Part shown: positions 3,180 to 35,242 of the stretch, piece after piece
Position numbering within the stretch: the first letter of the stretch is position 1
Layout: every line of letters begins with the position of its first letter
Assembly (NCBI GenBank): GCA_002395385.1
Contig: DGWW01000147.1
Location: forward strand, 1,214-65,213
Direction of reading: 5' to 3'
Source of the DNA: Myxococcales bacterium UBA4248
GTDB lineage: Bacteria; Myxococcota_A; Bradymonadia; UBA4248
Length of the DNA: 64,000 bases
The notes under the pieces: generated by a model
What the model saw: only the letters and a program-made list of their open reading frames with translations
Told to the model about the DNA's origin: nothing
The model's database searches: none
Program-made: the position numbers and the translations under genes

Positions 3180-5525
3180 TTATTTGGCTTCGGGCTTTTT
3201 AATGCGATCATAACCGGATTGTTTAAGCGTAAACGTTCCCTTGGCATCGAGTCCAACATCAAATGTGTATTTGCGCGAAGACTGAAGTTCCTGTTCCTGG
3301 CCGCCTCGAACCGGTCGGAGGTTGCCTTCCGTTCCCGTTGCACCGAGAAATTCCCAATCCGGGCCAGAAGGCACGGTGCTTTCCTGCGTCATGTCCGGGC
3401 AAATGAGTTCACCCGCACGGCGAAGGCAAACGCGCAATCCTTCTTCGGAAGAATTGAATTTTACGATCGATTCACCGATCGATTCACGCAAAAGGTTGGT
3501 ATCGAGGTTGAGCGAACCAAAGCCATCGGGAATCACAGAAACCTGGAGCGGCAGACGCTGATCATGGGTAATGTAATACTCGATGATGTCACCAGGCTGA
3601 ACGGTTGCAACAATCGGGCGAACGTAATCCTGACCGCCTGTCGAAATCTTGAGGCCGTAGGGTTTTGAAGAGGGGGCAAACTTTTTGAGTGCACATTTGG
3701 TCCCCATCAGAGCACTGTCTTCCGGGACGAGGGCCGGAATGGTGACCGTCGTGTCCGGATGAACCGGCCAAATGATGTGCATGTGCTTGGCAAAGCCCGG
3801 TTTTTCAATTGTGAGCACGTGCGGCCGGCCGAGCACTACTTCAGAAACGGCCGATGGGAAATTGCCAATGGCACGACCGTCGAGCATGGCTTTGAGGCCC
3901 ACACCCTGATTGCTGATATCCGTCAGACGAAAATCAATCCGGCCTTTGAGATAGAGGGAATCCGGGATCATTTCGATCTCGATGGGACCGGTGACATCGG
4001 TTTTGGAATCGAATGTCTTAAAGAACGGCACCATACCATCCGCATACGCCATAATGGTATTGCGGTGATTGGATACGAATTCAAAACTGCCTGTCGGTGA
4101 AACCTCAACGCCGTTGATGAAAATCGTGCTTGCCCCACCCGTCTTGATATTGACTGGATAGGTGCTGAGATGAACTTTTTCGACGACGGGTTTTGGAACT
4201 TCAACCACCTCTTCCTGTTTTTTCTGCTGCTCAGCCTGAATTTCAGCTTCGGACGGTCCGCTGAACGCCAGGAAATAAAAGCCAACGCCTGCGGCCGCAA
4301 GAACAAGAATAATAATGATCGCCAAAACGGGCCCGCCGGAATTCTTTTGCTGTGTCATACCAGGATTACCGTACATTTCCATCAGCTCCCTTTGTTTTGC
4401 ACGTCGCTGTTCTGCCTCAGCCTGCTGTTGCTGAAGAGAATATTGCTCATATTCAGCTCTTTCTTCGGGGGTCATTGATTCATAAAGTGCCATCAGCTGC
4501 TCTTCATCCGAGAGTTCACGCTGAGGTGCTGCCGGCTGTGCATACCCGGACGGAGTCTGGGGCACCTGAACCGAAGGGGCAGCAGGGGCAGCAGGCGGCA
4601 TCTGGACAGAAGGTGTTGCGGGAGCTGCGGGCGGCATCTGAACAGAAGGTGTTGCGGGAGCTGCAGGCGGCATCTGGACAGAAGGTGTTGCGGGAGCTGC
4701 AGGCGGCATATGAACAGAGGGCGTTGCGGGTGCCGCAGGTGGCATCTGAACCGATGGTGAAGGATGGGGCGCAGACGGCATCTGAGTGGATGGTGTCGCC
4801 GAAGCTGCATTCGAAGCCGCCCCAGTCCCGGGAATCGGAATTGGTTTGGACACCGGCGTTGCTGCAAGTGCCGCTGCCAGTTCTGCATTCATAAACGGGG
4901 ATTCAACCATTTCCGTTTTTGACGAATCGGCAGAAGGCATATCAATCGCCATGGTCTCATCTGTCGCGGCTGCCGCAGGTACGGCCGCTGGTGATGCACC
5001 ACGGATAATGGGTACGCGCTGGGAAGGAATATTAAATTCGGATGCAGGAGTGATCGAAGACGATCGATTGGTCACAGTCGTCATTTCATCATCAAGCGCC
5101 ATCAAATCATCCAGAGACTCCGCAATTGAACGGTTTTCGGATGTCACATACGCTGCACCTGCATCTTCGGGGACATTGTCCCAACCGTCGATCCCTCCCA
5201 CAGCCGCAAGGATATCGTCAGCTGAACGTATATCGGTCGGTTCATCCGATGTCATGAAATCAAGCGATTCCATTTCGGAAATAGCACTCGAGCTTTGATT
5301 GCGATTCAAAGCACCAATTTTAGGAATGCTGGGAAGGCTTGCGCCATGAATACTTGGCATATTCTTACCCGACTTAACTCTATATTCACCCATAATGACT
5401 AACCTTCTGGAAAAATTTACCAATGAACGTGCAAAGCGTCGTCGCATCATGCCACAAAGCATCATTTCATTCAAGTCGAATGCGATCTCAAAAAAAATGG
5501 TTTTGTTGCCGAGGCTATTTGGCAT
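3180..5525 (-). CDS. Pro-rich repeat membrane protein with C-terminal PEGA-like domains. Alternative start near 5395 (MGEYRV...) with a GAAGG RBS
   Basis: Six tandem copies of the repeat PSVQMPPAAPAT. Coiled-coil/Gln-rich segment, one TM (VLAIIIILVLAAAGVGFYFLAF), then PEGA-like beta-rich repeats (VLTIEKPGFAKHMHIIW). Confidence 0.8.
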   Translation of the reverse strand: MPNSLGNKTIFFEIAFDLNEMMLCGMMRRRFARSLVNFSRRLVIMGEYRVKSGKNMPSIHGASLPSIPKIGALNRNQSSSAISEMESLDFMTSDEPTDIRSADDILAAVGGIDGWDNVPEDAGAAYVTSENRSIAESLDDLMALDDEMTTVTNRSSSITPASEFNIPSQRVPIIRGASPAAVPAAAATDETMAIDMPSADSSKTEMVESPFMNAELAAALAATPVSKPIPIPGTGAASNAASATPSTQMPSAPHPSPSVQMPPAAPATPSVHMPPAAPATPSVQMPPAAPATPSVQMPPAAPATPSVQMPPAAPAAPSVQVPQTPSGYAQPAAPQRELSDEEQLMALYESMTPEERAEYEQYSLQQQQAEAEQRRAKQRELMEMYGNPGMTQQKNSGGPVLAIIIILVLAAAGVGFYFLAFSGPSEAEIQAEQQKKQEEVVEVPKPVVEKVHLSTYPVNIKTGGASTIFINGVEVSPTGSFEFVSNHRNTIMAYADGMVPFFKTFDSKTDVTGPIEIEMIPDSLYLKGRIDFRLTDISNQGVGLKAMLDGRAIGNFPSAVSEVVLGRPHVLTIEKPGFAKHMHIIWPVHPDTTVTIPALVPEDSALMGTKCALKKFAPSSKPYGLKISTGGQDYVRPIVATVQPGDIIEYYITHDQRLPLQVSVIPDGFGSLNLDTNLLRESIGESIVKFNSSEEGLRVCLRRAGELICPDMTQESTVPSGPDWEFLGATGTEGNLRPVRGGQEQELQSSRKYTFDVGLDAKGTFTLKQSGYDRIKKPEAK
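4562..4760. repeat. about 5.5 tandem copies of a 36 bp unit inside the CDS (encodes PSVQMPPAAPAT repeats)
   Basis: Unit ctgcaggcggcatctggacagaaggtgttgcgggag, repeated nearly perfectly. Confidence 0.85.
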
Positions 5526-7903: not shown

Positions 7904-8680
7904 CTATGCCTTAACGAAATTATCCCTTTCATCTTTCCCGGCTGCAATCAGATTTAGACACTCGGACGCGACCCTGAGTCCGAATGTCCCTGTCACAGTT
8001 ATCAGACTGCCCAGTACCGGACGCGCAATTTTCAGACTTCCGTTATGCGACTGCAGGGATCGATGTGTTTCTTTTTGTGCAGGTTCCCGTGAATAGACGC
8101 ATCCAACCCCCTGTGTGACCCCAAACGCGCGCAGGCGCTTGCGTACCTCCCGCGCCAGAGGACAGATTTCTGTCTCCGAAATATCCGCAAAACACACTTC
8201 GGACGGCTTGGTTTTTCTGGCTGCCCCCATGCTCGAAATGACCGGAATCCCAGCCCTGACGCAATGTACGATCAACTCGATTTTTGCATCAATCGTGTCG
8301 ATCGCATCCACAACGACGTCCGGTTGCCTGCCATCCGCAAACGGGGCATCCACCACACTCACATTGGAAGCATCCACGACAGCATCGACGCATTCCACTG
8401 TTATCCCCGGATGAATCGCGCACAAATGGGATTTTGCAACCAATACTTTTGACATTCCCAAAGTGTGTTCATCCGAACCGAGCTGGCGGTTGATGTGATG
8501 AACCGCATAGACGTCGCCATCTACGAGACGAAAAAAGCCCACGCCGCTGCGGGCGAGCGCTTCGGCAGCAAAGCTGCCAACCGCGCCATACCCCACAATA
8601 CACACGTGAGCATTCGAAAAGCGCGCCAGCATTTCATCACCAACCAGCACGCTTACCCGCGAAAATCTTTCGTCACACAT
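7904..8680 (-). CDS. tcdA: ThiF/HesA-family E1-like enzyme, likely tRNA threonylcarbamoyladenosine dehydratase TcdA
   Basis: Rossmann motif VCIVGYGAVGSFAAEALARSGVGFFRLVDGD. About 258 aa. Its start overlaps the upstream stop by 1 nt (TAATG). Confidence 0.65.
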   Translation of the reverse strand: MCDERFSRVSVLVGDEMLARFSNAHVCIVGYGAVGSFAAEALARSGVGFFRLVDGDVYAVHHINRQLGSDEHTLGMSKVLVAKSHLCAIHPGITVECVDAVVDASNVSVVDAPFADGRQPDVVVDAIDTIDAKIELIVHCVRAGIPVISSMGAARKTKPSEVCFADISETEICPLAREVRKRLRAFGVTQGVGCVYSREPAQKETHRSLQSHNGSLKIARPVLGSLITVTGTFGLRVASECLNLIAAGKDERDNFVKA

Positions 8681-9780
8681 TACGGCAGAACGAGGGAGAT
8701 TTCGACGCGATCATTCTTCGCCCTGTTGTCCTTCTGTTTTTCATCATAACGCTGGACATCTTTTCCTTTTGCCGTCGTCATCATGCGTCCGTATTCAACA
8801 CCAAGCGAGACCAGGTAATCACGCGTGGCATCACAGCGCCGCTGGCTGACTTCAAAATAATTTTTCGTGTTTTTCTGTACATGGCCTTCGATCATAACCG
8901 TCTGCACATTATACTTCTTGGCGAGTTCGGCGATGCGCTTTAAAGCCTCCTGTTTGACGGGGAGAATCTCGCTCTTATTCTTTTCGAATGCGCTGGCGAG
9001 TACGATCACGACACTCTTCATATCGGTGAAGACATAGTCAGGTCCAACGATGGCCTGAGCATCGGTAAAGAGTGCTTTTTGACGCTCAGCGGACTGTGCC
9101 TGTGCCTGTTTTTTATCGAAATCGGGCTTAGCCTGTTCATAGGCCTTGGCAAAAAGTTGGCGTGCCTCTTCGGCAGCAGCACCGGCGCCGTCACGGTCAC
9201 CGTGTGAGCTCTTGTCACCGGCTTCTTTCAATTTGGCTTCTGCAGCAGCAAACACATCTTTCTGTGAATCCTGTGCGCCAACACCGGCAGCCTTTTCTCT
9301 TTCTGTCATGGCTGCCTGAATGCGGTTTTCGACATTGGCAATATCTGTATCGGAAATATTTTGTTTAATCAGGCCGACACTCTTGGTCAAGCCTTCATAT
9401 TTTGCATTCAGGGTTTCCATCTGCAATGTGGTTTCTTTGATTTCTTTTTCGGCAGCAGCCTGGCGTTGTTTTGCTTCATTGGCTTTTGCCATAGCACGTG
9501 CCGTCGCATACTGGCGCTGTCCGAGAGCGGCATACGTTTTGGCCTTGCTCTGTTCGCCATCCTGCCATGCATTGAGCGATTTATTCGTCAAATCGGTGCA
9601 AACTTTGTAAGCATCCGGAGCCTGGGTATTGATCTGCGCGGCTTCATCGCTATTGCGGAGCTCTTCGAGCTGTGTCAGCTCGGCGGGTTTATTCTGGGGA
9701 CCACAACCAGACAGAATGCCAAGGGCAGCCACACTACATAATGCCAACTGGAAAATTCTATTCTGTTTCATATTCCGCAC
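8680..9780 (-). CDS. OmpA-family lipoprotein with a long coiled-coil
   Basis: Lipobox LSGC after the signal peptide. C-terminal OmpA-like peptidoglycan-binding domain (...DATRDYLVSLGV...RVEISLV). Confidence 0.8.
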   Translation of the reverse strand: MRNMKQNRIFQLALCSVAALGILSGCGPQNKPAELTQLEELRNSDEAAQINTQAPDAYKVCTDLTNKSLNAWQDGEQSKAKTYAALGQRQYATARAMAKANEAKQRQAAAEKEIKETTLQMETLNAKYEGLTKSVGLIKQNISDTDIANVENRIQAAMTEREKAAGVGAQDSQKDVFAAAEAKLKEAGDKSSHGDRDGAGAAAEEARQLFAKAYEQAKPDFDKKQAQAQSAERQKALFTDAQAIVGPDYVFTDMKSVVIVLASAFEKNKSEILPVKQEALKRIAELAKKYNVQTVMIEGHVQKNTKNYFEVSQRRCDATRDYLVSLGVEYGRMMTTAKGKDVQRYDEKQKDNRAKNDRVEISLVLP

Positions 9781-9782
9781 CC

Positions 9783-10238
9783 CTACTTCTTCATGCTGTC
9801 TGCTTTCGATTTAAGAACATCCTCTTCGGCCGTCAGCTGCTGCACCTGAGCTTCGAGCTTGCCGTATTCCGCCTTCAATGCTTTCAGTTTGGCTTCCGCT
9901 TCCATTGCTTTGCCCATTTCAACATCACGCAGCATGGATGCTTCAACGAAATCAATATAGACACCAAGCTTGAGCACGAGCGAGCTGACTTTTTCTTTCT
10001 CTTCTTTACCAATTAAGATGAGAGCTTCATCGATCCAGCTCGAAATCTGGGACATTTCGCTGTTATATCGTGCCGTATCGCCCGTTTTGATCTTTTCTAC
10101 CCGGAGCTGATACTGACGAACATCATCCCTCAACACCTTAATATCCTGAGCAAACACCTGGGAAACAGGGATGCTCATAAAAATGCCCAATCCCAGAAGG
10201 ACTCCTCGTCCTAAGCGCTTCAAATTCTTCTCAGACAT
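9783..10238 (-). CDS. secreted coiled-coil protein
   Basis: Start MSEKN at 10238 with a GGAGA/AGGAG RBS. Signal peptide ...LLGLGIFMSIPVSQVFA. Heptad-rich sequence. Confidence 0.6.
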   Translation of the reverse strand: MSEKNLKRLGRGVLLGLGIFMSIPVSQVFAQDIKVLRDDVRQYQLRVEKIKTGDTARYNSEMSQISSWIDEALILIGKEEKEKVSSLVLKLGVYIDFVEASMLRDVEMGKAMEAEAKLKALKAEYGKLEAQVQQLTAEEDVLKSKADSMKK

Positions 10239-10582
10239 CACAATCTCCTCTGCATGATTTATCAGCCTCACCATAAGGCTTTAAACAAGAGACACGGATA
10301 CTTAGCGCGAAATATCCCCAATTTCAACATTTCTCTGCGACCTCCGAAAAAACACACAAATAAAAAGTTATGTACAAACACCGCATAGCCCCCATTTATC
10401 CATGATTCAGATTTTGCAATACCCACTTTTTAGCCCCTATCATTATATATATGCAAATGAGCCAAGCCAGGGTGAAGCAGACGCATGCTCATTCTTGCCG
10501 GGGGAGCAGAAGACTGGCGTTTGGCGCATGCATAACCATGAAAGCAAGAGACGTGAGCAGTCACCCCGGATCCCGAGCCGGC

Positions 10583-11333: not shown

Positions 11334-12404
11334 ATGAATGCGCAACGGCTTGGCCCCTATCTTCTGCTCAAACGTCTTGGCATAGGCGGTATGGCTGAGA
11401 CATGGCTGGCTGCGCGTCAGATTTCGACAGATGTGATCAAATTTGTAGCGCTGAAATGCATTCTGAGTGCATACAATGCCATTCCCGACTATATCCGTTT
11501 ATTCTATCGGGAAGCGGCCATCAGCCTTGCCCTTGATCACTCCAATATCATAAACATCTGGGACTGTGACGTCATAGAGGGACGCCATGTCATGGTCATG
11601 GAGTTTATGGAAGGTGTCACGCTCGATGCATTGCTCAAGCGTGCGCCATGTCATCAGCTTACGCCCGAAATTGCATCGTATATTGCGCTGGAAATTTTGA
11701 ACGCCCTGTCCTACCTTCATTCGCTGCAGCAAAGGGATGGCACGCCTCTTCACATCATTCATCGCGACATCAATCCCCAGAATATTTTTATTTATTACGA
11801 TGGAAGGTGCAAGCTATTCGATTTTGGCGTAGCCCGGACAGGATCCTTTGAAGATGATTTGCAGCAGGGCATGCTCGTTGGCAAGCCTGCTTACATGAGC
11901 CCCGAACAATGTTACGGAAATGCGTTGGATCCCCGAAGTGACTTATTCTCACTCGCCACGGTGTTATATGAAATGTCGACGGGGCATTCTGCTTTTGGCA
12001 GTGACAATGACATCAAAACGCTCAATGCCGTCATGACTCAGAATCCCGTTTCACCGTCAGCGCACAACACCATTTTTCCTTCATTTCTCTCGCGCATCAT
12101 CATGAGAGGGCTTGAAAAAGATCCCAGCCATCGCTACGCGGATGCCAATGCATTTATTCAGGATCTGGCGATGTTCCGAAAAGTGACCGGAAATTCCGGC
12201 GGACAGACGATTCTTCAGGGATGGATGTCTGCACTGTTTGCAGATGAAATCTCGCAGTCCAAGGCTTACCTCACCCAGGTTGCATCCGATTTGTCGCAAA
12301 GTGCCCCCACTCTGGATGAACTCATCGCATCATCCCAAATGCTCGACTCATTCTCGGGCACAGGGGGCAGCCTTCAAATAACAATGTCAAAGCTGCCATC
12401 CTGA
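11334..12404 (+). CDS. Ser/Thr protein kinase (Hanks-type), cytoplasmic, with an atypical catalytic loop
   Basis: Motifs LGIGGMAETW, VALK, HRDINPQN (Lys of HRDLKPxN replaced by Asn), DFG, YMSPEQ. Confidence 0.9.
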   Translation: MNAQRLGPYLLLKRLGIGGMAETWLAARQISTDVIKFVALKCILSAYNAIPDYIRLFYREAAISLALDHSNIINIWDCDVIEGRHVMVMEFMEGVTLDALLKRAPCHQLTPEIASYIALEILNALSYLHSLQQRDGTPLHIIHRDINPQNIFIYYDGRCKLFDFGVARTGSFEDDLQQGMLVGKPAYMSPEQCYGNALDPRSDLFSLATVLYEMSTGHSAFGSDNDIKTLNAVMTQNPVSPSAHNTIFPSFLSRIIMRGLEKDPSHRYADANAFIQDLAMFRKVTGNSGGQTILQGWMSALFADEISQSKAYLTQVASDLSQSAPTLDELIASSQMLDSFSGTGGSLQITMSKLPS

Positions 12405-12476
12405 AAATGAAATACTCGAGGTAACCGTTGAGCCCGTATGCTATTTCTAAAGCCTCGAGGTTGAATCATTATAAGG

Positions 12477-12612
12477 CATGGGGCAGAAGTGGCTCAGACA
12501 CAGAGCTTTAGCGATTGTCGGGATTCATGTTTTTCCCTGAGAATACTTACTGTTGCCTACAGCCTGCTGCCCGGTTGACTCAGCCTCATTCCTTAAGATG
12601 AGATCATAGGGG
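12477..12612. repeat. roughly 120-135 bp repeated element, copy A (copy B at 54199..54337)
   Basis: About 80% identity to 54199..54337 (acacagag..tagcgattgtcgg..catacttactgttgcc..ctgactca..gacatagg). Confidence 0.7.
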
Positions 12613-12724
12613 CTGAACAGAAACCGGGATTGCTTGAATAATTGCCTCATGCGAGTTTAATCGTTACATTATGTTGCCAATGTTTTTATGGCGCGGTAAA
12701 ATAAATAGCCTTTAACTTTTCGTT

Positions 12725-14944
12725 GTGTTGGATAGTCCCGTGATACAGCCTAAAATTTTTGGAAAATTCATTTTACTTGAGCGAGTCAGCGTCGGTGGCA
12801 TGGCAGAGGTCTACCGAGCCAAACTTCTGGATGCTCCGGACTTTGAACGTTTTTTTGCCATCAAGCGCATCCTGCCGCATCTAGCAGCAGACGAAGACTT
12901 TGTCTCCATGTTTATTAACGAGGCAAAGCTGGCAGTAGAACTTGAGCACCCCAATGTATGCCAAATCTATGAGTTGGGACGTCTTGGCGATTCCCACTAC
13001 ATCGCGATGGAATACATTGCAGGCCGTGATGTCAAAGCCATCCAGGAATACTACCGCAAAAAGAAAAAAATCATGAGTGTCAGTCAGGCATGTTTTATCA
13101 TTGCCCAGGCGGCACAGGGGCTGGATTATGCCCATCGTGCGGTGGATAAAGACGGGCAGCCGATGGGAATCGTCCACCGGGATGTGAGCCCGCAAAACCT
13201 GCTCGTCACTTATGATGGCGTCGTCAAGCTCATCGATTTTGGCGTCTCAAAAGCAGCTCGCAAGACATCCCATTCGATGGATGGCGTGCTTAAGGGCAAG
13301 TACAGCTACATGAGCCCCGAACAGGCGATGAATCAGGAAATCGATCATCGATCCGATATTTTTGCACTTGGTGTCATCTTTTGGGAGCTTCTGACAGGGC
13401 GCAGACTTTTTCAGGCAGAAGCAGAAATCGCCATTCTTGAGATGATCTCCGAATGCGACATTACCCCGCCCACCAAATACAACAAGCTCATACCGGATGC
13501 AGTCGAAAAGATCTGCATGAAGGCACTCTCGAAAGACATTTCAAAACGCTACAAATTTGCGAGTGAAATGGTCGTCGACTTGATTGAATTTATCAGCAGC
13601 TGCAAGACACCTTTTACGCAATGGCACCTTCAGACCTGGATGTGCAAAGCATTTGCAAAGGAATTTGAAGAAGAGTGGGAGAAGATTCCCATCTTCAAGC
13701 AGATCAACACAGTCGAAGATGTCGACAGATACAACCGCGAGCATGCCAGCAGTTATACCAGCGACACAGGTTCAAAGCCCAAAGCAATTGATTCTGCCGC
13801 ATTATCCGAGGCATCACTCGATGAGCTTGAGAATGGCACTGCCCCACTGACAGAGGATGAGCTTGCCAAAGCCTCTTCGGCGAAGCTGTCGACAGTTCCC
13901 GCAGAAGTCATACGGGTCGAGGCCCCCGAAGGCGGCAAAGCCATCCCCATTGTCAAGCCACGAACAGTCAAGGCCAAGGTTCCCGAAGGTTCCGGTCCTC
14001 GCCTCGACATATCCGCAGACTCACTCCATTCCGAAGAAGATGTTGAGCTCATTCCCGAAGGGGTCGCCCCCACGGTGTCCGACCCGAACTATGTGCGCAT
14101 GAAGCGCATCGTAAGACGCGCACGAACCCGCACCGGGCTTGCGATTTTTATTATCGTGCTTTGCATTTGCCTGATGGCAAGCCCACTCATCTTCGTTTTT
14201 GACTTAATACAGCTGCCCAAACCGGAACTGAAACTCCCGACATCGGCAGAAGTCACATTTAATATTGCCCCTACCTCAGAAAAATCAGCGGAAACAGAAG
14301 TATTTCTTTATCGTTTTCCGCGGAATGCGACAGACAAGCCGGCCGAAACAGCCAAAGGCGCCAATGTTACATTTTCATCCCTAGAGGCCGGTTCGTATTC
14401 GGTCGATGTCGTGATGCCCGGGTATGAGCGCGAAACCTTCAACATTGATCTCGAAAACGGCAGGTCCCAGGCACGCCTCGAGCTTTTGCGTCCCAAACCC
14501 GTCCTAACCAAATATACGGTGAATATTTCACCGGAGGACGCCCTTCTCTTTCTCGACGGAAAACGCATTCAGGGAGCAGGAAGCACCAGAATTATTGAAG
14601 GCACCGTGGGGAATAGCTACACCCTCCGAGCCTACAAACCAGGATTTCAGCCGAAGCTGCTTGCAGGAACAATCGAAGCCGACATGAAACTCACAATGGC
14701 ACTCGAACCGGGAAGTCCGGTAACGCTCCACGTAGCATCCTCTCCAGAACATTGCACCGTCATCGTCAGCAGCAACGGCAGCCAGATTGCCAAAGGCGAG
14801 ACGCCATATAAGCTAGAAATCAACCCGCAATTGAGCGACATTCATATCGAGGTATCTCATCCCGATTACGAGAAGTGGACTCAAACAGTGTCCATCAAAG
14901 ATCTCGAAGACCCCAATATCAAACTATTTGCAGACCTGAATTAA
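12725..14944 (+). CDS. transmembrane Ser/Thr protein kinase with extracellular PEGA-domain repeats
   Basis: Kinase motifs VGGMAEVY, AIKRI, HRDVSPQN (catalytic-loop Lys replaced by Ser), DFGVSK, YMSPEQ. TM helix LAIFIIVLCICLMASPLIFVF. Three PEGA-like repeats (VVMPGYERETFNI, LRAYKPGFQPK, VSHPDYEKWTQTV). Confidence 0.9.
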   Translation: MLDSPVIQPKIFGKFILLERVSVGGMAEVYRAKLLDAPDFERFFAIKRILPHLAADEDFVSMFINEAKLAVELEHPNVCQIYELGRLGDSHYIAMEYIAGRDVKAIQEYYRKKKKIMSVSQACFIIAQAAQGLDYAHRAVDKDGQPMGIVHRDVSPQNLLVTYDGVVKLIDFGVSKAARKTSHSMDGVLKGKYSYMSPEQAMNQEIDHRSDIFALGVIFWELLTGRRLFQAEAEIAILEMISECDITPPTKYNKLIPDAVEKICMKALSKDISKRYKFASEMVVDLIEFISSCKTPFTQWHLQTWMCKAFAKEFEEEWEKIPIFKQINTVEDVDRYNREHASSYTSDTGSKPKAIDSAALSEASLDELENGTAPLTEDELAKASSAKLSTVPAEVIRVEAPEGGKAIPIVKPRTVKAKVPEGSGPRLDISADSLHSEEDVELIPEGVAPTVSDPNYVRMKRIVRRARTRTGLAIFIIVLCICLMASPLIFVFDLIQLPKPELKLPTSAEVTFNIAPTSEKSAETEVFLYRFPRNATDKPAETAKGANVTFSSLEAGSYSVDVVMPGYERETFNIDLENGRSQARLELLRPKPVLTKYTVNISPEDALLFLDGKRIQGAGSTRIIEGTVGNSYTLRAYKPGFQPKLLAGTIEADMKLTMALEPGSPVTLHVASSPEHCTVIVSSNGSQIAKGETPYKLEINPQLSDIHIEVSHPDYEKWTQTVSIKDLEDPNIKLFADLN

Positions 14945-15156
14945 CCCTTTGGCGATGTTTCATCAGCGTGGACATGAATTCGGCTGAATAGTAAGGATAA
15001 AACATTTCGGACATCTGAATCCACTTGACGCAAGAGATTAAGATGAAGTAAACTACGTAACCGCGTCGGCATCTAAATTTGCCATGTATTTAAAAACAGT
15101 TCGTGCATTTGTAAACAAACAACATGCAAACGACAATTGAGGAAGCTTAGGAGGGG

Positions 15157-16272
15157 ATGTTGAATTCTTTGAACAATAATCCCGGGTATGGAAATTTGGA
15201 CGGTATATCCGAAGAAGAAGTTGTCATCAAGGAAGAGTACGAGCCAGAGCCGGATGACTATAACTATGTACCGCAGATTCACGAAGTAGACGAAGCGGAG
15301 ATTCGCAATCTGTCCGCAATCCGCGAAGAGACCCAGGTAGACACCCGTGTCTACAAAGTCAGTGCGGCATTCCTTGTATTGGCACTCATCGGTGGTGGAA
15401 TTGGTCTTGCTGCGGCATCGCACTCTGCCTCCAAGGCAGACATTCAGCGCAAAGCTTCAATTGCCAAAACAATCAAAAATACGACAGAGACCAAGCTGTC
15501 CGGTTTTGACAAGTTCTATTCAGAATTTTCAAAAGTGGCGCAGGCCAACTACGATGAATCGAGCTTCCAAAGTGTCATTGCACAATACAGCAAGTACAAT
15601 TTTATGCTGGACATGTCGAGCGAGGTCACGTCTGAAGCCGTTTTGCTGGCAGGTGAAGCCCAGAATCCGCTCGAAGGTCTGCGTAAATATTCTGCCGACA
15701 CAATGCTTCTGACGCAGCTTTTGAGTTCCCACGTCAACGAGACACGTGCGGACTCGGATGAAATCCTCGAGCTCCAGAGCAAGAGTGACCATTCGAAAGT
15801 TGTATATGCCATGCAGGTTTTGCCGGATGCCATCCATTATCTTGCAACGGATGCCCCGCGTTCCCAGTATGCCAACGGCGTCATCGGCATCTACACCTAT
15901 CGCAGTGTCATCGAAGACGATGTCGAAGCATCGAGTGCATACAGCCAGTTAAAGGTCGATCAGAGATGGTCAGAGTGGCAGCGTTCGCGCCGCGATTATC
16001 AGCCGGCAAACAAGAAAGAGGCCATTCCAGAAGGTCTCGATCTCCCCAATCACCTGCTGTACCGCGTACTCGACCGACGTGGCAACGAATCCTTGCTTTT
16101 TGCAGACGAAGTCATCCTCGTCGACCGTTCTTTGCTCTTCGGCAAGTCGGCAAATGCCCTCGAACGCTACCAGCAGCGCAATGAGATGATCAAAGCCGTG
16201 CTCGATCGTGCAAAATCAGAAAGTGCAAGCATCGTTTCCCAACTCGAATCGTTTATTCCAAAAGATAAGTAA
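15157..16272 (+). CDS. membrane protein of unknown function, paralog A of a tandem pair
   Basis: AGGAGG RBS. One TM (VYKVSAAFLVLALIGGGIGLAAA). The C-terminal 280 aa are homologous to 16366..17667 (NPLEGLRKY.., FADEVILVDRSLLFGKSANALERY). Confidence 0.8.
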   Translation: MLNSLNNNPGYGNLDGISEEEVVIKEEYEPEPDDYNYVPQIHEVDEAEIRNLSAIREETQVDTRVYKVSAAFLVLALIGGGIGLAAASHSASKADIQRKASIAKTIKNTTETKLSGFDKFYSEFSKVAQANYDESSFQSVIAQYSKYNFMLDMSSEVTSEAVLLAGEAQNPLEGLRKYSADTMLLTQLLSSHVNETRADSDEILELQSKSDHSKVVYAMQVLPDAIHYLATDAPRSQYANGVIGIYTYRSVIEDDVEASSAYSQLKVDQRWSEWQRSRRDYQPANKKEAIPEGLDLPNHLLYRVLDRRGNESLLFADEVILVDRSLLFGKSANALERYQQRNEMIKAVLDRAKSESASIVSQLESFIPKDK

Positions 16273-16365
16273 GACCATACGGCACTTCCGTTGCCGTCAC
16301 TCCCTGATATAATCAATTTATTTAGCATTAGACGGATTCGTCCGCCCTTGTTTGCTTAGGAGGGA

Positions 16366-17667
16366 ATGTTGAATTCTTCCAATAACTCAAAGTTCAAGAA
16401 TATCGATGAACTCAAAGCCCGTATGGCTGCCAAAAATAGCGGCGGCGGTGGCGGATTCGGCGGTGGCGCAGGCGGCTTCGGCGGCGGTGGCGGTTTCGGC
16501 GGCGGATTCAGTGGGAAAGTTCCCAAACAATCCAAAGAAATCGTCATTCATGATGAAGATAAAGGCCCAGGGAAAATGTTCGACTTCGATATGGATCAGG
16601 TCGATAAATCCCTCATGCCACCCAAAGATAATACGAAACCTATCATGGTTTGTTTCGTAGGCGTCATCTGCCTCGTTTTCGGATGCTTCATCGGATGGTG
16701 CTGGCAGGGCGTTCTCGCCGATCGCGCGAGCGTTAACGAACGTATCAAAGTCGCAAATGAAGTTGAGGGTCACGTTCAGCCCAAAATCGATGCCTTCCAA
16801 ACTTTTGCACAGGTCTGGAAACAACGCAGCGAATCCCTCGGTGCCGGCGTCCTCGAATACAATCACGACTTCTACAATAACGTCATTAAAACTTATAAAA
16901 GCAAAAACTTTATCCTCGACGTCAGCTCCGACCTGCCCAAAGGTACCATCTCCATGGCCAGCAACTCCGCTCAAAATCCCCTGAGCGACCTCCGCGGCTT
17001 CGGTGCCGGTACCACACTCCTCGGCGCACTCCTCGATTCCCACATTCAGCAGACCGACGCTGATATGGATGAAATCCAGACCCTCCTCGGACAAAGCAGC
17101 GCCACCGACAGACATATCGTCTATGCTCTCAAAGTCGATGCCGCTCAATTGCTCACCCTCACCGAAATGGGCTCCGACCGTTTCCTCAAAGCCTTTACCT
17201 GCACACAAGTTTATCAGGTAAAACGCGCTATCACCGACGATACCGAAGCTAGCAAGATTTTCCAGCAAATGATCGATTCCGGTAAGGTTCCTGCCGATCA
17301 GGTCAAAGCCAGAACTTATTCCGAAGAAGAAGACGTTCAGAAGAAAAAGGCAAAGGAAAAAGCTGCAAAAGCCGCAAAAGCCGGTAAAAAAGTTGACGAA
17401 GTTGCCGAAATCACGACCGATCCCAACCTCGTACTGCCCAAACGTCTCATCTATGAGATCGTCGATAAATCCGGTGCTTCCCAATATGTCTTCGCCGATG
17501 AAGTCATTCTCATCGGACGCGACAAGCTCTTTGCTGAAAGCGCAAACGCCCTTGAGCGCTATCGTAAACGTATGATTCAGATACTGGCCATCCTCGGCGA
17601 AATCGAAAAAACGACCGATGGACTCCAGAACAGACTCCATATCATCGCTACCGAAGAGCCTCTATAA
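16366..17667 (+). CDS. membrane protein of unknown function, paralog B of a tandem pair, with a Gly-rich N-terminus and a Lys-rich insert
   Basis: Nearly the same RBS/start context as paralog A (gcttaggaggg-ATGTTGAATTCTT). One TM. Conserved C-terminal FADEVILIGRDKLFAESANALERY. The antisense ORF 16387..17640 is rejected. Confidence 0.8.
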   Translation: MLNSSNNSKFKNIDELKARMAAKNSGGGGGFGGGAGGFGGGGGFGGGFSGKVPKQSKEIVIHDEDKGPGKMFDFDMDQVDKSLMPPKDNTKPIMVCFVGVICLVFGCFIGWCWQGVLADRASVNERIKVANEVEGHVQPKIDAFQTFAQVWKQRSESLGAGVLEYNHDFYNNVIKTYKSKNFILDVSSDLPKGTISMASNSAQNPLSDLRGFGAGTTLLGALLDSHIQQTDADMDEIQTLLGQSSATDRHIVYALKVDAAQLLTLTEMGSDRFLKAFTCTQVYQVKRAITDDTEASKIFQQMIDSGKVPADQVKARTYSEEEDVQKKKAKEKAAKAAKAGKKVDEVAEITTDPNLVLPKRLIYEIVDKSGASQYVFADEVILIGRDKLFAESANALERYRKRMIQILAILGEIEKTTDGLQNRLHIIATEEPL

Positions 17668-17678
17668 GCTACCTTAAA

Positions 17679-17703
17679 GCCTCTGGAAACAGAGGCTTTT
17701 TTA
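17679..17703 (+). terminator. Rho-independent terminator
   Basis: GCCTCTG-GAAA-CAGAGGC followed by TTTTTT. Confidence 0.7.
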
Positions 17704-17824
17704 TTGCCTGTTTCACATCTTTCTCCCCCGCTTCATTACCGATGATACACACCTCATCGCTTTTCTATTAAAGAGTGGGGCCGGGTTATTTCGCTGCGCT
17801 CAATACACCACGGCCTTCGACGCT

Positions 17825-18421
17825 ATGATATACGCGTCGAATTTTTTATTTGTACCTCGCTCACAAACGGCCAATGCCATGCGTATTCTGTTTTCTGCTC
17901 TCATTTTCCTTACACTTGCCGCCCTATCCCCCGCTATCGCATCTGCACATCCGGATTCTCACGAAATTATTCAGAAAATTGCGCTCGAAGAACTCGCCAT
18001 CACCAATTCCAAACTCCCCATTGCTTTAAAATTGCCCAAAACCTGGAAATCTCAGCCCACCAATGAAAACACACTGATTTTCTGGGTGCCCTACCACAAT
18101 GGTGTGATGGGACATATCGAAAAGAGAGACAATCCCATGTCCTGGAACGATTCAATCTCGTTTCTCTCCGATTTTTTTAAAACCAAATTCAAAGAGGATT
18201 CGAAAGAAACTTTCCAGTTGGAATCGGGGATTCAAGGGGAAAAAGGTACGATTTCCGGCCCCATCGGTGGCGAGGAATACAGGTTATTTGTGTGCGTCGC
18301 CCAATTAGCGGACAACACGGTAATCTTGTATTACGCTTCTGCGCCGATTCTCTGGTTCCAGGCCTACGAACCTTTATTGAATGACATCCTCAAATCTTTC
18401 CAATTGCCCTCTGCCAATTAA
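17825..18421 (+). CDS. hypothetical secreted protein. The start may be the internal M at 17879
   Basis: Signal-peptide-like MRILFSALIFLTLAALSPAIASA. No known domain recognised. Confidence 0.5.
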   Translation: MIYASNFLFVPRSQTANAMRILFSALIFLTLAALSPAIASAHPDSHEIIQKIALEELAITNSKLPIALKLPKTWKSQPTNENTLIFWVPYHNGVMGHIEKRDNPMSWNDSISFLSDFFKTKFKEDSKETFQLESGIQGEKGTISGPIGGEEYRLFVCVAQLADNTVILYYASAPILWFQAYEPLLNDILKSFQLPSAN

Positions 18422-19235: not shown

Positions 19236-21173
19236 CTAGGGTAAAAACCGAATATGCAAGCAGGAAATGCCTTGCGACTTCAAAATGGGCGAAGTTTGTT
19301 CAAAGAGTCCCCCGACATCCTCTTCGTGCACCATTTGAGGGAAAACCGCTGCCGTATAAATTTGTCGTACAAAACTGCGCAACACGAGCGAATTGGCTTT
19401 CTTTTTCTTAAGAAGCTCCCACATCCCCGCATAATGTTTTCTCATAGTCGCAACATTGCAGGAAAAAGCAGATTCCATTTTTTGAGAGGTTACAATCACT
19501 CTTGGATTATCCGGAACATCCGCAGGTGAGATGGGCACCCATCTGCCCTGAGTTTTGCCCCATAAATGCGGCATTCCCAATGTTCGACAGATGATCATTT
19601 CGTCCAATCGGAGCACCATTTTGCGCGTTTTCCACGTGTTCTGCAGTTCTTCGCGCGCCTGAATTTTAGATTCAAAATGCGCCTGATAGGTTTCAATTTC
19701 ATCACTCTGATCGCGCGCTCTAAAAGTGACAATTCGTATTTGATCATGCTTCTGCCCCTTTCGAATCAGGCGCCCGTTTCTCTGTTGGATCAGCACCGGA
19801 TTCCATGGCAAATCAAAATGTATGATTGCGCATGCCCTCTGAAAATTTTGTCCGCAGGAAAAGGCATCCGTACAAATCAATATTCGGGCCATTTTCTGCC
19901 CGGTTCTATCCCACCATTCAGGCATCTTCAGGTCGGGGTTGAACATCGCCATGAGCAAATTGGCATCGATTTCGTAATGATTTAACCGTGCAGTTCCCGA
20001 TGTGAGCAGCCCCACACGTCCCAATTCCGAAAGCGACTTCTCTAAAATGCGCGCAGTATCACAGTATTGTGTAAAAATGACGATCTGCTCATCCTCATCC
20101 ATCGTTCGAATCCATGCCTTGAGGCGATGCAGTTTTTCATCCGGTTCATGCTTGCAAATCCATTCCAATTCGTGAACAACAGAACCAATTTGATCCAGAA
20201 TCTCGTTTAGATGAAACTGCCCCGTCTGCACTTCCCGCGTTCCTTTGCCCAAAGGCAAACATAACTGCCTGCCCTCTATGCCCATCATTTTATAAAAAGC
20301 TTTGCGCGTCATCAGACGATCCTCCGGATTGAGCGCACAAATCCTATAAAACCTCGCAATTTTTTTAAGACTGCACAAACAGGCTTCGCGATGACTGAAC
20401 AGACGATGTAACAACAAATTCCGTATGAGATGCAGCTCCACGGCCCCAGTCGATGTCTGAACCAGCCACGGAACGGTCTGGATCTGTTCGATAACCCTTT
20501 GAATTCCTGATTGACATGGGCTGATTGCATACACAATCTCACAATTCTGACATCCGAACAGTCCCTCCGGCATGAGCCTCATCACCAGCGTCTGCGGACG
20601 AATGGCATTGGCAAAACTCCTCAGCCATGCATTATCCTTGATGCAATCGGGAAATCCGCACAATGACATGAGCGCCCTTAGATCTGCCCAGGACAGACTA
20701 ACCGGTGTTGCCGTAATCAGGCACACCCGATGGCGAGCAGTCCAGACGCGCAAATGGCGGTGACGAAGCGTTGCGGGATTTTTTAATAGATGCGCTTCAT
20801 CCAAAATCCATAGGCTGTCCGGCACTTTTGGACAGTCAATCCTCTCAAGACTCACCATCTGATAGGAATAGAATGAAGCTTCAACCCCAAATATCGTCAA
20901 TACCCTGCGCCAGTGATCCTGCAAATGCGCTGGCGCAGCAACGACAATGTGTACGTCCGGATTGGTTTGCATATACCACGCTGCAAGTGCGGACACGACG
21001 AATGTTTTGCCTGTTCCGGTGGACTCATCCACAAGAACTGCACGATGATTGCTCAGGATTTCACAGCATGCCTGTAACGTTCTTTGCTGAGGTACTGTCA
21101 GCAAATCAAGTATTTCTGCCCCAACGGGAGGTGGTGTTTCGCGGTCTTCCAGGTACTGTCGTATGCAATCCAT
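19236..21173 (-). CDS. SNF2-family helicase/ATPase
   Basis: Motif I DESTGTGKT, motif II DEAH, motif III LITATPV. Helicase-C motifs ...ILICTDAFSCGQNFQ...HFDLPWNPVLIQQRNGRLIRKGQ. Begins 8 bp after the methyltransferase stop, so it is in an operon. Confidence 0.9.
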   Translation of the reverse strand: MDCIRQYLEDRETPPPVGAEILDLLTVPQQRTLQACCEILSNHRAVLVDESTGTGKTFVVSALAAWYMQTNPDVHIVVAAPAHLQDHWRRVLTIFGVEASFYSYQMVSLERIDCPKVPDSLWILDEAHLLKNPATLRHRHLRVWTARHRVCLITATPVSLSWADLRALMSLCGFPDCIKDNAWLRSFANAIRPQTLVMRLMPEGLFGCQNCEIVYAISPCQSGIQRVIEQIQTVPWLVQTSTGAVELHLIRNLLLHRLFSHREACLCSLKKIARFYRICALNPEDRLMTRKAFYKMMGIEGRQLCLPLGKGTREVQTGQFHLNEILDQIGSVVHELEWICKHEPDEKLHRLKAWIRTMDEDEQIVIFTQYCDTARILEKSLSELGRVGLLTSGTARLNHYEIDANLLMAMFNPDLKMPEWWDRTGQKMARILICTDAFSCGQNFQRACAIIHFDLPWNPVLIQQRNGRLIRKGQKHDQIRIVTFRARDQSDEIETYQAHFESKIQAREELQNTWKTRKMVLRLDEMIICRTLGMPHLWGKTQGRWVPISPADVPDNPRVIVTSQKMESAFSCNVATMRKHYAGMWELLKKKKANSLVLRSFVRQIYTAAVFPQMVHEEDVGGLFEQTSPILKSQGISCLHIRFLP

Positions 21174-21181
21174 AGCTCACC

Positions 21182-24157
21182 TCATGCACAGCGAAGATGG
21201 GCACTTGCCATGTATTTTTCAATCAGCACATCAATCTGCTGTGTGACTGCGCTGCACTCTGACTTCATGGAGTGACATTGCTTAGAAAGTTCAATCATTT
21301 CCTTCACTTCATCGGATTGTGTGTCTTCCCCAAAACACCAGGGCAGCCCCTCAATGACCCAGGCAAAAAATCTTCGGTAATTGTTCTGGGCATGTTCCGC
21401 GCGACGACTACAATAATCACGGGCAAATGAAGAATTCAGATAGGCTGACAGGAGATACCCGACATCGCGCGATCTGACAGCAATGTAATAAACGGTATTC
21501 AATGGAATAATGCCGGATTCCTCCACGAAACACGCTTCAATCGTGTGTGCAATATCGCGCCAGACCACCTTCGGAAAGGCCAAATGATGCGACACACCAA
21601 ACAAAGAATGACTGCATTTGCGCCCAAGTCCCTTTCGTGCAAGCAATCCCTCCCTGTTCTGTTCAAACCAGCGCTCTGCACAAGGAGGCAATTGCCCAAG
21701 TACCTCCATTCCTCGATCAAATGCATGGGTAAACACAATTTCCCTTTCTGTTCGATACCCATACGCCCGAATATCAGCACCTCTCAACGCGGGATGTATC
21801 AGCATTCGCTCGATCTCAATCGGCTCAGAACGAGTTCTCATCCGCGCCAGCACCAAATGACCTGCAGCCATGGTCTCGGCGGGTATGAAGATGTCATTCG
21901 CCCCGGTACAGACACCTCTTTTCACTGTAAAAAAGTCGCCGATCGTACCATTCAGGGAAGACGGGTTCTTCAAAATGAGCTCCGGACGCGGCGATGGCTT
22001 TGTCTTCTGAGATACAAATGTCGGCTGTATTTCGGTCCTGCACAAAATCAAAGTTGTCGGATATGCAGCAGCCGCAAATGTATTGCATTTCGAATGAGAC
22101 AAATCCTGAATGGACATAATCACAGTATGCGAAGCAATATGGTTTCTGAAACTCTCATAGGACGGAGCATTGAATAATTTGTTCGGAACGATCATGGCAA
22201 TCAGTCCATTCGATCGCGCACATCGAATCGCTTTTTCAATAAAAAGCGCACTCACATCGGAGGATTGCGCTTTCGTCCCCCGAATGGGAATCGCCGTCTG
22301 ATAAAGCACACGAAGGGCATTTTGTGCAGAATCGGGCATGGTGTGCAGCGAAAACCACGGAGGATTCCCCAAAACCATATCAAAACCACCCTGCTCGAGA
22401 ATGTCCCCAAAATGAATTTCAAAACTGAATCCCGGAACAAGCCCAAACTCCAGATAATTCCTGAACTTAACCTTTTGTGCTTCGAGTACCGCCAGATGCT
22501 TCTGGTCCCGGACCGAAATCTGTGCTTTTCCAAACAACGCCCCTTGCACACTTCGGTACTGCCGGCATGCATCATCACACTGCGCAATCATCTGCGACAT
22601 CATCTGTGCGCTCATTCGCTGCAGATTCAGTTCGATCTGTTTGGCTAGTTTTTTCTTAGTTGGCCCCGACGAAAGCCGATAACGATGTTTCAGGTGACTG
22701 ATCTCCTGAATACATGGCAAATCGCGTTTAGGTACCCCCAGTATTTTTGCCAGCTGGCCACATTCGACCAGTGCATCACCACACTGAATGTTGACATCGA
22801 GATTTGGTAGTGAAGGAATATCCTCAGTCTTGTCAAAATATTGCATCAGCTCAAGCCATAGCCGCAGTTCACAGATTTGCCTGGCCGCTGGCACAATATC
22901 CACGCCGTACAAATTCCTCGATAAAATCTGCCTGGCTAAACTCCCCGCAGATTCCGCATGAGAATAGCGATTTTGCAATCCCGTTCGAATACGATGCAAA
23001 AGGCTCAGTGAACACTGCAAAAAAGAGCCGCTGCCAGCTGCCGGATCGAGAATCGATAGCTTCGAGAGCCGTTCTTCAATCTTTTGGGCTGCTTCCGGCC
23101 CAATATCACCATACGCATCCCTCAACAGAATCCCATCAATTTGTGCCTCCGACAACGCCGTTTCATTCCGGAACCATTGACGAAAGACATCCAGCACCAC
23201 CTTCCTCGCCATTGGAATCGGCGTATAGTAAGACCCTGTCGCATTTCGATTATCTTTGCGCATCAGGGTCTCAAACACATGACCGAGCATGAGCGGATCG
23301 AGCGACAAAGCATGATTCGACTGTGAATGATGGGTTGTCAGTGCATAACGGCCAAATAATTCCCCCAAAATTTCAATCCAAATCTCATTGGGCGCCGTCA
23401 AATGCGGAGAACGCAATTCATGCCCACCCGGCGTGAACAAACCGCCATTTAAAAATGGGATTTTTCCAAACTTGCGAACGCGCTGGGTACGCCTGTGTGG
23501 GGCACGATTGAGCGTCTCGAAAAAGAGCGGCTGCAAAAAATCACCATAGATGGATCCACCGCCATCCCGGCATTTGCGCGCCTCTGCAACCAAAAAATCC
23601 GATCGATTATCCAAAATCCCGCGAGCCTCAAGGAATGCCGTAAAAAACAACCTCAAAAGGGTATCCAATGCAAGCTGATGCCGGATTTCATGCGTATCAT
23701 TTGTAATATTCTGCCAACTTTCAGCGAGTTTGTGACAATAATGCTTAAAAGAAGCAACAAATTTCTGTTCCAAACGCCGTTTCCCAAATTTGCGATCGAG
23801 CTCAAACACAAATTCCAGATAGGTTGACAAATCTCCTAGTTCAGCCAATTCCTCATTATTTTCCCACGCCACATCGTTGGCCACAATGGGGGATGCATCA
23901 AACACTGACTGTGCATAGATATCGATGACACATTTACCCGGGTAATCGATGATCACAACCGAATCTGGGTGCGTTTGCAGAAATCGGTGAATTCGACTTA
24001 TGACTGGCGCCGCCTCAGCACCAAAGACATAGATCTCCATACACGTCCCAACGGCCTTAAATGCACTGACGACATTCGTAATTTCAGCCTCTGCCAACTC
24101 AACAATACTGGCATGCCATGCATTGCGGACAAAATCGACGAGCCCCTTGTGTTCCAT
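21182..24157 (-). CDS. large N6-adenine DNA methyltransferase of the Eco57I/MmeI/PglX-like gamma class, with a helical N-domain and a C-terminal TRD
   Basis: FLNGGLF and GSYYTP motifs, SAM motif I LDPAAGSGSFL, motif IV NPPW, C-terminal TaqI_C-like specificity region. 991 aa. Confidence 0.9.
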   Translation of the reverse strand: MEHKGLVDFVRNAWHASIVELAEAEITNVVSAFKAVGTCMEIYVFGAEAAPVISRIHRFLQTHPDSVVIIDYPGKCVIDIYAQSVFDASPIVANDVAWENNEELAELGDLSTYLEFVFELDRKFGKRRLEQKFVASFKHYCHKLAESWQNITNDTHEIRHQLALDTLLRLFFTAFLEARGILDNRSDFLVAEARKCRDGGGSIYGDFLQPLFFETLNRAPHRRTQRVRKFGKIPFLNGGLFTPGGHELRSPHLTAPNEIWIEILGELFGRYALTTHHSQSNHALSLDPLMLGHVFETLMRKDNRNATGSYYTPIPMARKVVLDVFRQWFRNETALSEAQIDGILLRDAYGDIGPEAAQKIEERLSKLSILDPAAGSGSFLQCSLSLLHRIRTGLQNRYSHAESAGSLARQILSRNLYGVDIVPAARQICELRLWLELMQYFDKTEDIPSLPNLDVNIQCGDALVECGQLAKILGVPKRDLPCIQEISHLKHRYRLSSGPTKKKLAKQIELNLQRMSAQMMSQMIAQCDDACRQYRSVQGALFGKAQISVRDQKHLAVLEAQKVKFRNYLEFGLVPGFSFEIHFGDILEQGGFDMVLGNPPWFSLHTMPDSAQNALRVLYQTAIPIRGTKAQSSDVSALFIEKAIRCARSNGLIAMIVPNKLFNAPSYESFRNHIASHTVIMSIQDLSHSKCNTFAAAAYPTTLILCRTEIQPTFVSQKTKPSPRPELILKNPSSLNGTIGDFFTVKRGVCTGANDIFIPAETMAAGHLVLARMRTRSEPIEIERMLIHPALRGADIRAYGYRTEREIVFTHAFDRGMEVLGQLPPCAERWFEQNREGLLARKGLGRKCSHSLFGVSHHLAFPKVVWRDIAHTIEACFVEESGIIPLNTVYYIAVRSRDVGYLLSAYLNSSFARDYCSRRAEHAQNNYRRFFAWVIEGLPWCFGEDTQSDEVKEMIELSKQCHSMKSECSAVTQQIDVLIEKYMASAHLRCA

Positions 24158-35088: not shown

Positions 35089-35242
35089 CGGAGCGTGGAA
35101 CTTCTAATCCCTGAACCACAAAATTCAAGCGTTTTATGCCTATTAAAATATAAATCCCATCCACAAATCTTGAAGAATCGTGTTTCAGGGTGTAAACTAA
35201 AAGGGGAAATATTATGAATTATTCCCCCTTTTGGAGGTTATC

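Follow-up and report, generated by a model that had tools for sequence, protein, structure and literature searches.

Genes A and B

Two adjoining open reading frames (ORFs), referred to here as genes A and B, and a smaller gene downstream of them, C, were analyzed in a 64,000-nucleotide stretch of the genome of Myxococcales bacterium UBA4248 (contig DGWW01000147.1); the whole stretch is called the window. Both ORFs lie where they had originally been predicted, head to tail on the plus strand, to which all coordinates of A, B and C refer. Gene A (15157-16272) encodes 371 aa, or 370 aa if the TTG at 15160 is the start, and gene B (16366-17667) encodes 433 aa. The two proteins align by BLASTP over 324 aa with 30% identity (E=2e-37), and this alignment spans everything after the membrane segment and contains the motifs FADEVIL..R..LF..SANALERY and NPL..LR on which the claim of a shared C-terminal domain had been built. 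A and B are confirmed to be paralogues and genuine conserved copies of one single-pass membrane protein family, with B being nearer to the ancestral form and A being the divergent copy with an acidic N-terminal tail.

Each protein consists, in this order, of a short N-terminal peptide, a disordered linker, one transmembrane helix and a domain of about 280 aa. One strong hydrophobic segment was found per protein, as had been predicted, at residues 68-86 in A (15358..15414; the sole segment above 1.6 in a Kyte-Doolittle scan) and at residues 93-111 in B (16642..16698). The domain that follows comprises 280 aa in A (residues 91-371; 15427..16269), where it is predicted to form three long helices and a five-stranded alpha/beta head, and 315 aa in B (residues 118-433; 16717..17664). 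The Lys-rich insert reported earlier for B is real (approximately residues 320-350; 17323..17415) and occupies a variable loop of the head that is modeled with low confidence. This loop differs in length and charge throughout the family, with acidic inserts at the equivalent place in distant relatives.

The N-terminal tails had been described as acidic in A and Gly-rich in B, which holds, and as completely diverged, which does not, since motifs are shared across the orthologues. The A tail contains 17 Asp or Glu residues against 4 Lys or Arg. In the B tail there are 21 Gly and 7 Phe residues, and its positions 26-48 (GGGGGFGGGAGGFGGGGGFGGGF) form a Gly/Phe-rich low-complexity linker (16441..16509) that is predicted to be disordered. 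Common to both N-termini are M(L)NSxxN, an acidic IIEE stretch, D-[YF]-[ND]-[YF] and a VD before the transmembrane helix. The linker differs in length among the B orthologues and is replaced in distant relatives by one rich in Pro, Ala and Gly. Ahead of it, alignments reveal an N-terminal helix motif in B, NIDELKARMAAKN (residues 12-24; 16399..16437), whose NLDELKARM(A) corresponds to the DLDDLKARLG(L) of Bradymonadia relatives. The motif has been lost in the A of the window, and some A orthologues retain ELKA.

In six-frame translations of all homologous loci fetched for comparison (denoted below by L and a number), all 11 matches to the N-terminal motif were located at the N-termini of family genes, and none was found in other proteins of the fetched DNA, where its presence might have pointed to a partner in common. 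Some family members appear short: their called genes encode 274-290 aa, beginning with the transmembrane helix, and are probably truncated by mis-called starts. The ORF at 9677-10825 of L027 (P0156), for instance, continues upstream and encodes the motif DLADLKARLGL.

A family restricted to Bradymonadia and gut-associated relatives

Word-indexed searches retrieved 52 B-type and 57 A-type homologues from metagenome-assembled genomes (MAGs) labeled 'Proteobacteria/Myxococcota bacterium', all of them unnamed or hypothetical save for one evidently spurious JGI label. A profile hidden Markov model (HMM) of the region after the transmembrane helix was then compared with 1.84 billion cluster representatives and matched 62 proteins at E<1e-3, 21 of them at E<1e-10, with the weaker matches forming a coherent group that shares the family architecture. 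In a profile-profile comparison, hhalign matched the gut clade to the Bradymonadia branch with a probability of 99.6% (E=7.6e-24), which makes this distant branch part of the family. Named relatives include a hypothetical protein of the cultured species Lujinxingia sediminis (WP_127779328.1; EA187_04665), proteins of Bradymonadaceae TMQ3 and Bradymonadales TMQ1, others from Bradymonadia and Bradymonadales MAGs, and one partial member labeled Flavobacteriales. Both A and B have the features that define the family, namely a transmembrane helix and a domain after it with conserved H, T, R, Y and R residues, and B carries the N-terminal motif of the family in addition.

The close clade of the window comprises 13 GTDB species, all represented by MAGs of gut Myxococcota. 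Their sources are goat and roe-deer omasum, buffalo rectum, cattle colon and other bins of unstated source, together with a sample named 'Cu122P3bin5', which we take to be from termite gut. Outside the class Bradymonadia, the family is confined to gut-associated relatives within Myxococcota. A Myxococcota-type A-B pair was also observed on a contig labeled 'Bacteroidaceae bacterium' (L021; CAVGZQ010000018.1), which is probably mis-binned or mislabeled. A literature search on the Lujinxingia accession and on gut Bradymonadia returned nothing on a protein of this family.

Gene A is followed directly by gene B, in the same order, in every clade locus fetched. B clusters with the single-copy relatives in a neighbor-joining tree, in which A is set apart as a clade with longer branches. 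The ratio of nonsynonymous to synonymous substitution rates (dN/dS) ranges from 0.075 to 0.29 for A and from 0.05 to 0.30 for B; in comparisons with unsaturated dS it is 0.075 for A and 0.066 for B between L014 and L017, and 0.148 and 0.049, respectively, between L004 and L021. A evolves somewhat faster than B. The suggestion that one copy might be a pseudogenizing duplicate fails on these values (0.05-0.30 overall) and on the presence of both copies, intact, in the 13 GTDB species. The tandem duplication that gave rise to A and B is old and has been stably maintained, with both copies under purifying selection and neither of them decaying. A distant lineage (L030, 1-2779) has a tandem pair of its own in reversed order, with the copy bearing the Gly-rich tail upstream, which suggests that duplication happened more than once or that an older duplication was followed by losses.

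The start regions of the two genes had been reported to be nearly identical, and this is the case: 24 of 25 bases are the same (gcttaggaggg[g/a]ATGTTGAATTCTT), and the flanks otherwise do not align. The block reads gcttaggagggGATGTTGAATTCTT in A (15146-15169), comprising the Shine-Dalgarno sequence AGGAGGGG (15149-15156), ATG at 15157 and a conserved TTG at 15160 followed by AAT TCT, and gcttaggagggAATGTTGAATTCTT in B (16355-16378), with the Shine-Dalgarno sequence AGGAGGGA, ATG at 16366 and the conserved TTG at 16369. Both genes thereby carry AGGAGGG-N-ATG-TTG-AATTC. The 64 kb window has two exact matches to AGGAGGGNNNNTTGAATTC, at the starts of A and B, against a chance expectation of 0.24 matches even with up to 2 mismatches allowed.

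Across the clade, yAGGAGGG-nnnn-TTG-AAT-TC is kept in both paralogues in every locus where the block was found. The bases that precede the TTG vary (atg, gag, gcg, gtg or gaa) and TTG-AAT-TC is invariant, from which it follows that the conserved start would be the TTG, 5 nt after AGGAGG. As read from these sequences, then, the conserved start codon is probably TTG rather than ATG, and the ATG appears to be particular to this sub-lineage. The likeness of the two start contexts is thus a clade-wide feature in which a strong Shine-Dalgarno sequence is combined with a TTG start and with the conserved peptide N-S-S. The block (15149-15169 and 16358-16378 in the window, and its counterparts in L002-L023) is kept even where the proteins of the genomes are only about 50% identical; its Asn codon is AAT in every listed instance, and it contains GAATTC. 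Its conservation could reflect selection on translation initiation or on matched expression of two subunits.

The post-membrane domain and companion protein C

The best Pfam matches for A and B have E-values of 0.036 or worse, far under the cut-offs. Nothing was found for A in NCBIfam, where B had one match of 16 bits against a cut-off of 89, and no PADLOC or PHROGs profile matched A, B or C. When 21 ectodomains were scanned individually against Pfam, no family was common to more than three members and no weak family recurred, and searches of the PDB sequences with a single sequence and with the profile gave nothing significant.

The ectodomain of A was modeled with AlphaFold2 from 98 sequences at a mean predicted local distance difference test score (pLDDT) of 94.1 and a predicted template-modeling (TM) score of 0.80. 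In this model long helices at positions 3-39, 81-118 and 244-266 are accompanied by a cluster of short helices and the five-stranded alpha/beta head. The full-length model of B (pLDDT 74) has residues 1-73 disordered except for a helix at 11-25, and its transmembrane helix continues unbroken to residue 157 as a 68-residue helix. Foldseek searches with the full-length B and A ectodomain models against PDB and BFVD returned nothing below E=0.04, the best results for the A ectodomain being E=0.05 with TM scores of at most 0.27 in PDB and E=0.11 in BFVD.

The top-ranked PDB matches, none of them significant, are SipD, flagellin, NheA and MakE. The type III secretion needle-tip protein SipD, the ClyA-family toxins NheA and MakE and flagellin resemble the models in having an elongated helical bundle with a small mixed or beta head, but at E=0.05 or worse, TM scores of at most 0.27 and root-mean-square deviations of 15-24 Å the likeness is not evidence of homology, and these proteins are secreted, unlike the membrane-anchored A and B.

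The residues that are invariant throughout the family (in A numbering) are H192, R337 and R341, with T196 and Y338 present in at least 90% of members. The invariant His lies on helix 2 with the Thr four residues further on, and the two Arg residues belong to the C-terminal motif NAL-x-R-Y-x-x-R. These positions place the strongest conservation in the stalk and not in the head. The domain had not been recognized originally and was thought to be possibly uncharacterized, a view that a clean match to a well-characterized family would have overturned; the profile, sequence and fold searches (Pfam, NCBIfam, PADLOC, PHROGs, PDB sequences and Foldseek) gave no such match. Judged from the profiles and the predicted models, the domain lies outside every family and solved structure tested.

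Gene C (17825..18421) encodes a small secreted protein with a probable start at M19 (17879) and the signal peptide MRILFSALIFLTLAALSPAIASA. By tblastn, C follows B in most clade loci and is itself followed by yraN (UPF0102), a SNF2 helicase gene and an Eco57I-like methyltransferase gene on the opposite strand. In L001, L010 and L029 a single family gene is followed by a gene for a small secreted C-like protein and then by coaX, and in L030 a C-like protein and coaX follow the tandem family pair. The likeness of C to its equivalents in these four loci is positional, with weak sequence likeness: a profile of the gut-clade C proteins detects the L030 protein at E=2e-12 and the L001 protein at E=2e-5, and the L010 protein is linked to these by BLAST. 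LPxxW is invariant in the C proteins, and a Sec-type signal peptide is present in all those with a recovered N-terminus. The family has a conserved companion in C. No match to C was found in Pfam or PDB. A relation to PsbP/DcrB-like proteins, which the LPxxW motif had suggested, is not established, as only 1 of 14 members matches PsbP (E=0.12).

Proposed role, gene context and alternatives

We put the probability of our preferred reading at roughly 40%: A and B would form a hetero-oligomer with N-in/C-out topology that works together with a periplasmic C and bears a cytoplasmic peptide tether. Both proteins would insert into the inner membrane with the N-terminus inside and the C-terminus outside and pair through their long juxtamembrane helices, and their periplasmic domains may cooperate with the small secreted protein C. 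The polar cluster made up of the His and the near-invariant Thr of stalk helix 2 and the Arg-Tyr-x-x-Arg of the C-terminal helix would be a functional or interface site. A cytoplasmic partner may be captured by DLxDLKxRLG, the amphipathic helix of the ancestral N-terminus, which is carried on a flexible linker. Since only B keeps this helix in the duplicated clade, the two copies appear to have divided the work, so that B would tether the partner and A would be its obligate partner subunit.

The N-in/C-out topology is inferred from the lack of a signal peptide, from tails of 64-220 aa that are acidic, Gly-rich or Pro-rich and unlikely to be exported, and from the secreted companion. A cytoplasmic N-terminus and a periplasmic C-terminal domain had been asserted from the start, and this part of the claim stands as probable rather than as observed. 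Four observations count against the reading as a whole. The Lys and Arg residues on the two sides of the membrane segment are balanced (3.0 versus 2.5 in the gut clade and 1.2 versus 1.6 in distant relatives) and do not settle the topology. No cytoplasmic partner of the N-terminal peptide was found. C is not directly downstream in L004/L005, L019 and L021, nor in the Bradymonadia-type loci L009, L025 and L027. Lastly, a terminator-like hairpin, recognized by pattern match only, lies between B and C (17676..17705; AAAGCCTCTG-GAAA-CAGAGGCTTT followed by TTTATT), beginning 9 nt past the stop codon of B, and with its 10-bp stem it ranks first among the sites found between 10.2 and 18.6 kb, the part that was scanned.

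The nearest analogues in working logic, as distinct from membership, may be PilN/PilO and GspL/GspM, paired bitopic inner-membrane proteins that are encoded side by side and act as heterodimers. Proteins of the PilN/PilO type have a short cytoplasmic N-terminus, one transmembrane helix, a periplasmic coiled-coil and a small alpha/beta domain, and PilN carries a conserved partner-binding peptide. A and B differ from these in having no Pfam match to PilN, PilO or GspM/T2SSM at E<=1 and no Foldseek match, in the larger ectodomain (about 280 aa) with its three-helix stalk, and in the long, disordered cytoplasmic tail; no pil, gsp, pilus or secretion genes were called among the loci with gene tables. 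The combination of a conserved terminal peptide with a variable low-complexity linker to an anchor, the linker being Gly/Phe-rich in B and Pro/Ala-rich in Bradymonadia, recalls the cytoplasmic peptide of FtsN, ZipA and the C-terminal linker and peptide of FtsZ. A and B are unrelated to these proteins in sequence, differ from them in orientation and ectodomain, and showed no link to division genes.

The setting of the genes is that of an ordinary chromosome, with dnaX, yidC, recD2 and psd in the window and coaX, murJ and a penicillin-binding protein gene among the neighbors of distant relatives. Counting these genes as a housekeeping setting, we infer that the module acts like a housekeeping envelope scaffold of the lineage, and neither as a kinase-specific sensor nor as a mobile system. 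A bolder proposal, doubtful in its entirety, is that A, B and C constitute an unrecognized Bradymonadia-specific envelope module with a new periplasmic fold and a peptide on a flexible linker that recruits machinery of the cytoplasm, such as a cytoskeletal or ParA/MinD-type protein, to a periplasmic assembly, and that duplication in the gut lineage produced an obligate heterodimer of one tethering and one non-tethering subunit.

If true, this would be a lineage-defining envelope component of the little-studied predatory class Bradymonadia and its relatives from ruminant and termite guts. A confidently predicted domain that is absent from Pfam, NCBIfam and PDB would merit a new domain-family entry, and the homologue in the cultured L. 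sediminis makes the proposal directly testable. A tandem pair in which an ancestral cytoplasmic motif was lost from one copy would also lend itself to a clean study of how a membrane scaffold subfunctionalizes. The small size and narrow distribution of the family limit the significance, as does the lack of a link to a long-standing open question.

A and B could alternatively be stand-alone periplasmic ligand sensors, which we consider improbable, with the His, Thr and Arg-Tyr-Arg cluster of the stalk binding a small molecule or lipid head group and the signal passing through the transmembrane helix to the tail. The placement of the invariant polar residues on the stalk helices and not on the head would suit such a role. 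So would the long helix that continues from the membrane into a beta-beta-alpha-beta-beta-beta head, an arrangement that resembles the PDC/Cache sensors with their five-stranded alpha/beta module and, loosely, the extracytoplasmic PDC/PAS-like sensor domains in general. The ligand-binding domain of PilJ is among the weak Foldseek matches (E=0.55, TM score 0.21). These matches are not significant, however, and the 50 best matches of the high-confidence model include no sensor domain. No match to Cache, PAS, 4HB_MCP or another sensor family was obtained, apart from one of the 21 members with 4HB_MCP_1 at E=0.23. A and B also differ from the PDC/Cache sensors in having neither a second transmembrane helix nor an output domain, and no histidine kinase gene was called beside the family among the loci with gene tables.

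The genes had been placed directly downstream of a REC-STK-STK(PEGA) unit, that is, a receiver domain protein and two Ser/Thr kinases (STKs), and proposed as signaling partners of the kinases. The placement is correct for the window and does not extend to the other loci searched. The proteins of the window were compared by tblastn with L001-L024, at least 10 of which hold 4-9 kb upstream of A, and homologues of REC, STK1 and STK2-PEGA adjoin the pair in none of the other loci; the sole kinase match was found 9 kb upstream in the distant relative L009. The OmpA-like, ThiF, TPR and FHA-TonB proteins of the window likewise had no homologue beside the pair in this search. What lies upstream varies by locus, being a TPR protein with an HtrA-like protease, genes without a Pfam match, or genes on the opposite strand. 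Synteny ends exactly at the 5' side of A and is kept downstream. Kinase adjacency is thus particular to this genome, and the proposed partnership finds no conserved linkage with Ser/Thr kinase genes in the relatives.

A coupling confined to this genome, in which A and B sense the periplasm and signal to the upstream unit or are phosphorylated by it, is very unlikely. In its favor, A begins 212 bp downstream of the STK-PEGA gene on the same strand with no terminator-like site between them, its tail contains a T-x-x-D sequence (TQVD), presumably of the kind preferred by FHA domains, an FHA protein is encoded at 706-2730, and L009, L027 and L029 have kinase genes at distances of about 3-10 kb. 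B lacks the TQVD motif, however, no clade locus has an adjacent REC or STK homologue even where 4-9 kb of upstream sequence is available, and the upstream neighbors differ by locus. Myxococcota carry many Ser/Thr kinases, so a kinase gene within 10 kb is expected by chance.

We give equally little credence to an inverted, N-out/C-in topology, which would make the proteins cytoplasmic membrane-anchored regulatory alpha/beta modules, for example of the Roadblock/LC7 kind. The flanking charges do not favor N-in, the modeled order of elements in the head (beta-beta-alpha-beta-beta-beta-alpha) would be compatible with Roadblock-like folds, and the best PDB sequence match of the profile, at a non-significant E=0.14, is the roadblock domain of RagA. 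Against this, export is unlikely for N-terminal tails of 64-220 aa that are acidic or Pro-rich and have no signal peptide, and the apparently short members probably have mis-called starts, as in L027, where the ORF extends upstream with the motif. No Robl_LC7 match was found in Pfam, and the conserved companion C has a Sec signal peptide. The roadblock match is kept as a lead only, with no support from Pfam or Foldseek.

A role as an anti-sigma-like regulator, as originally suggested, or within a defense island shared with the SNF2 helicase and the type IIG-like methyltransferase encoded downstream, is highly implausible: the layout of A and B (N-in, one transmembrane helix, outer domain) has the general shape of single-pass anti-sigma factors and the SNF2 and Eco57I-like genes (19236-24157) are syntenic in most clade loci and match PADLOC DrmD and type IIG models, but A, B and C match no anti-sigma domain (zf-HC2, RskA or FecR) and no PADLOC model, the conserved element on the cytoplasmic side amounts to one helix of some 13 residues in an otherwise disordered tail, neither gene calling nor Pfam revealed a sigma factor gene among the loci with gene tables, and the defense reading is rejected on gene context, with the SNF2/methyltransferase pair on the opposite strand beyond yraN and not beside the family in L001, L004, L009, L010, L025, L029 and L030.

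Several further features were observed in the window and the related loci. The SNF2-family helicase (644 aa) and the Eco57I/MmeI-like N6-methyltransferase (990 aa) lie side by side on the minus strand at 19236-24157 and match the PADLOC DISARM DrmD/DrmMI and type IIG models; their position is constant in most clade species, which is unusual for a defense system. Both Ser/Thr kinases at 11334-14944 match the PADLOC kinase models 'PD-T4-6' and 'mad6' with E-values down to 1e-68, scores that most likely reflect generic Hanks-kinase similarity and not a role in defense. The Bradymonadia-type loci L009, L025 and L027 share a large, divergently transcribed PKD/CARDB/PPC protein and an upstream metallophosphatase. 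Divergent secreted proteins of this kind (866-1415 aa) are encoded at 5429-9523 in L009, 5591-9679 in L025, 5117-9364 in L027 and 6710-9310 in L001, and the metallophosphatase adjoins them in three of the four loci.

An OmpA-family protein with a long coiled-coil N-terminal part is encoded on the minus strand of the window at 8680-10274, and its OmpA domain weakly matches a TraB outer-membrane-exchange model. A 163-aa coiled-coil protein is encoded immediately upstream on the same strand, and both genes lie between the kinase unit and thiF. The FHA protein on the minus strand at 706-2730 has 673 aa and combines the N-terminal FHA domain, which also matches the YscD cytoplasmic domain, with a C-terminal TonB_C domain; this combination is uncommon, and the protein is possibly a phospho-threonine-responsive TonB-like protein. 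Four large ORFs of 600-780 aa, at 3180-5525 on the minus strand and at 27703-29517, 35231-37312 and 49240-51408 on the plus strand, are without any Pfam match.

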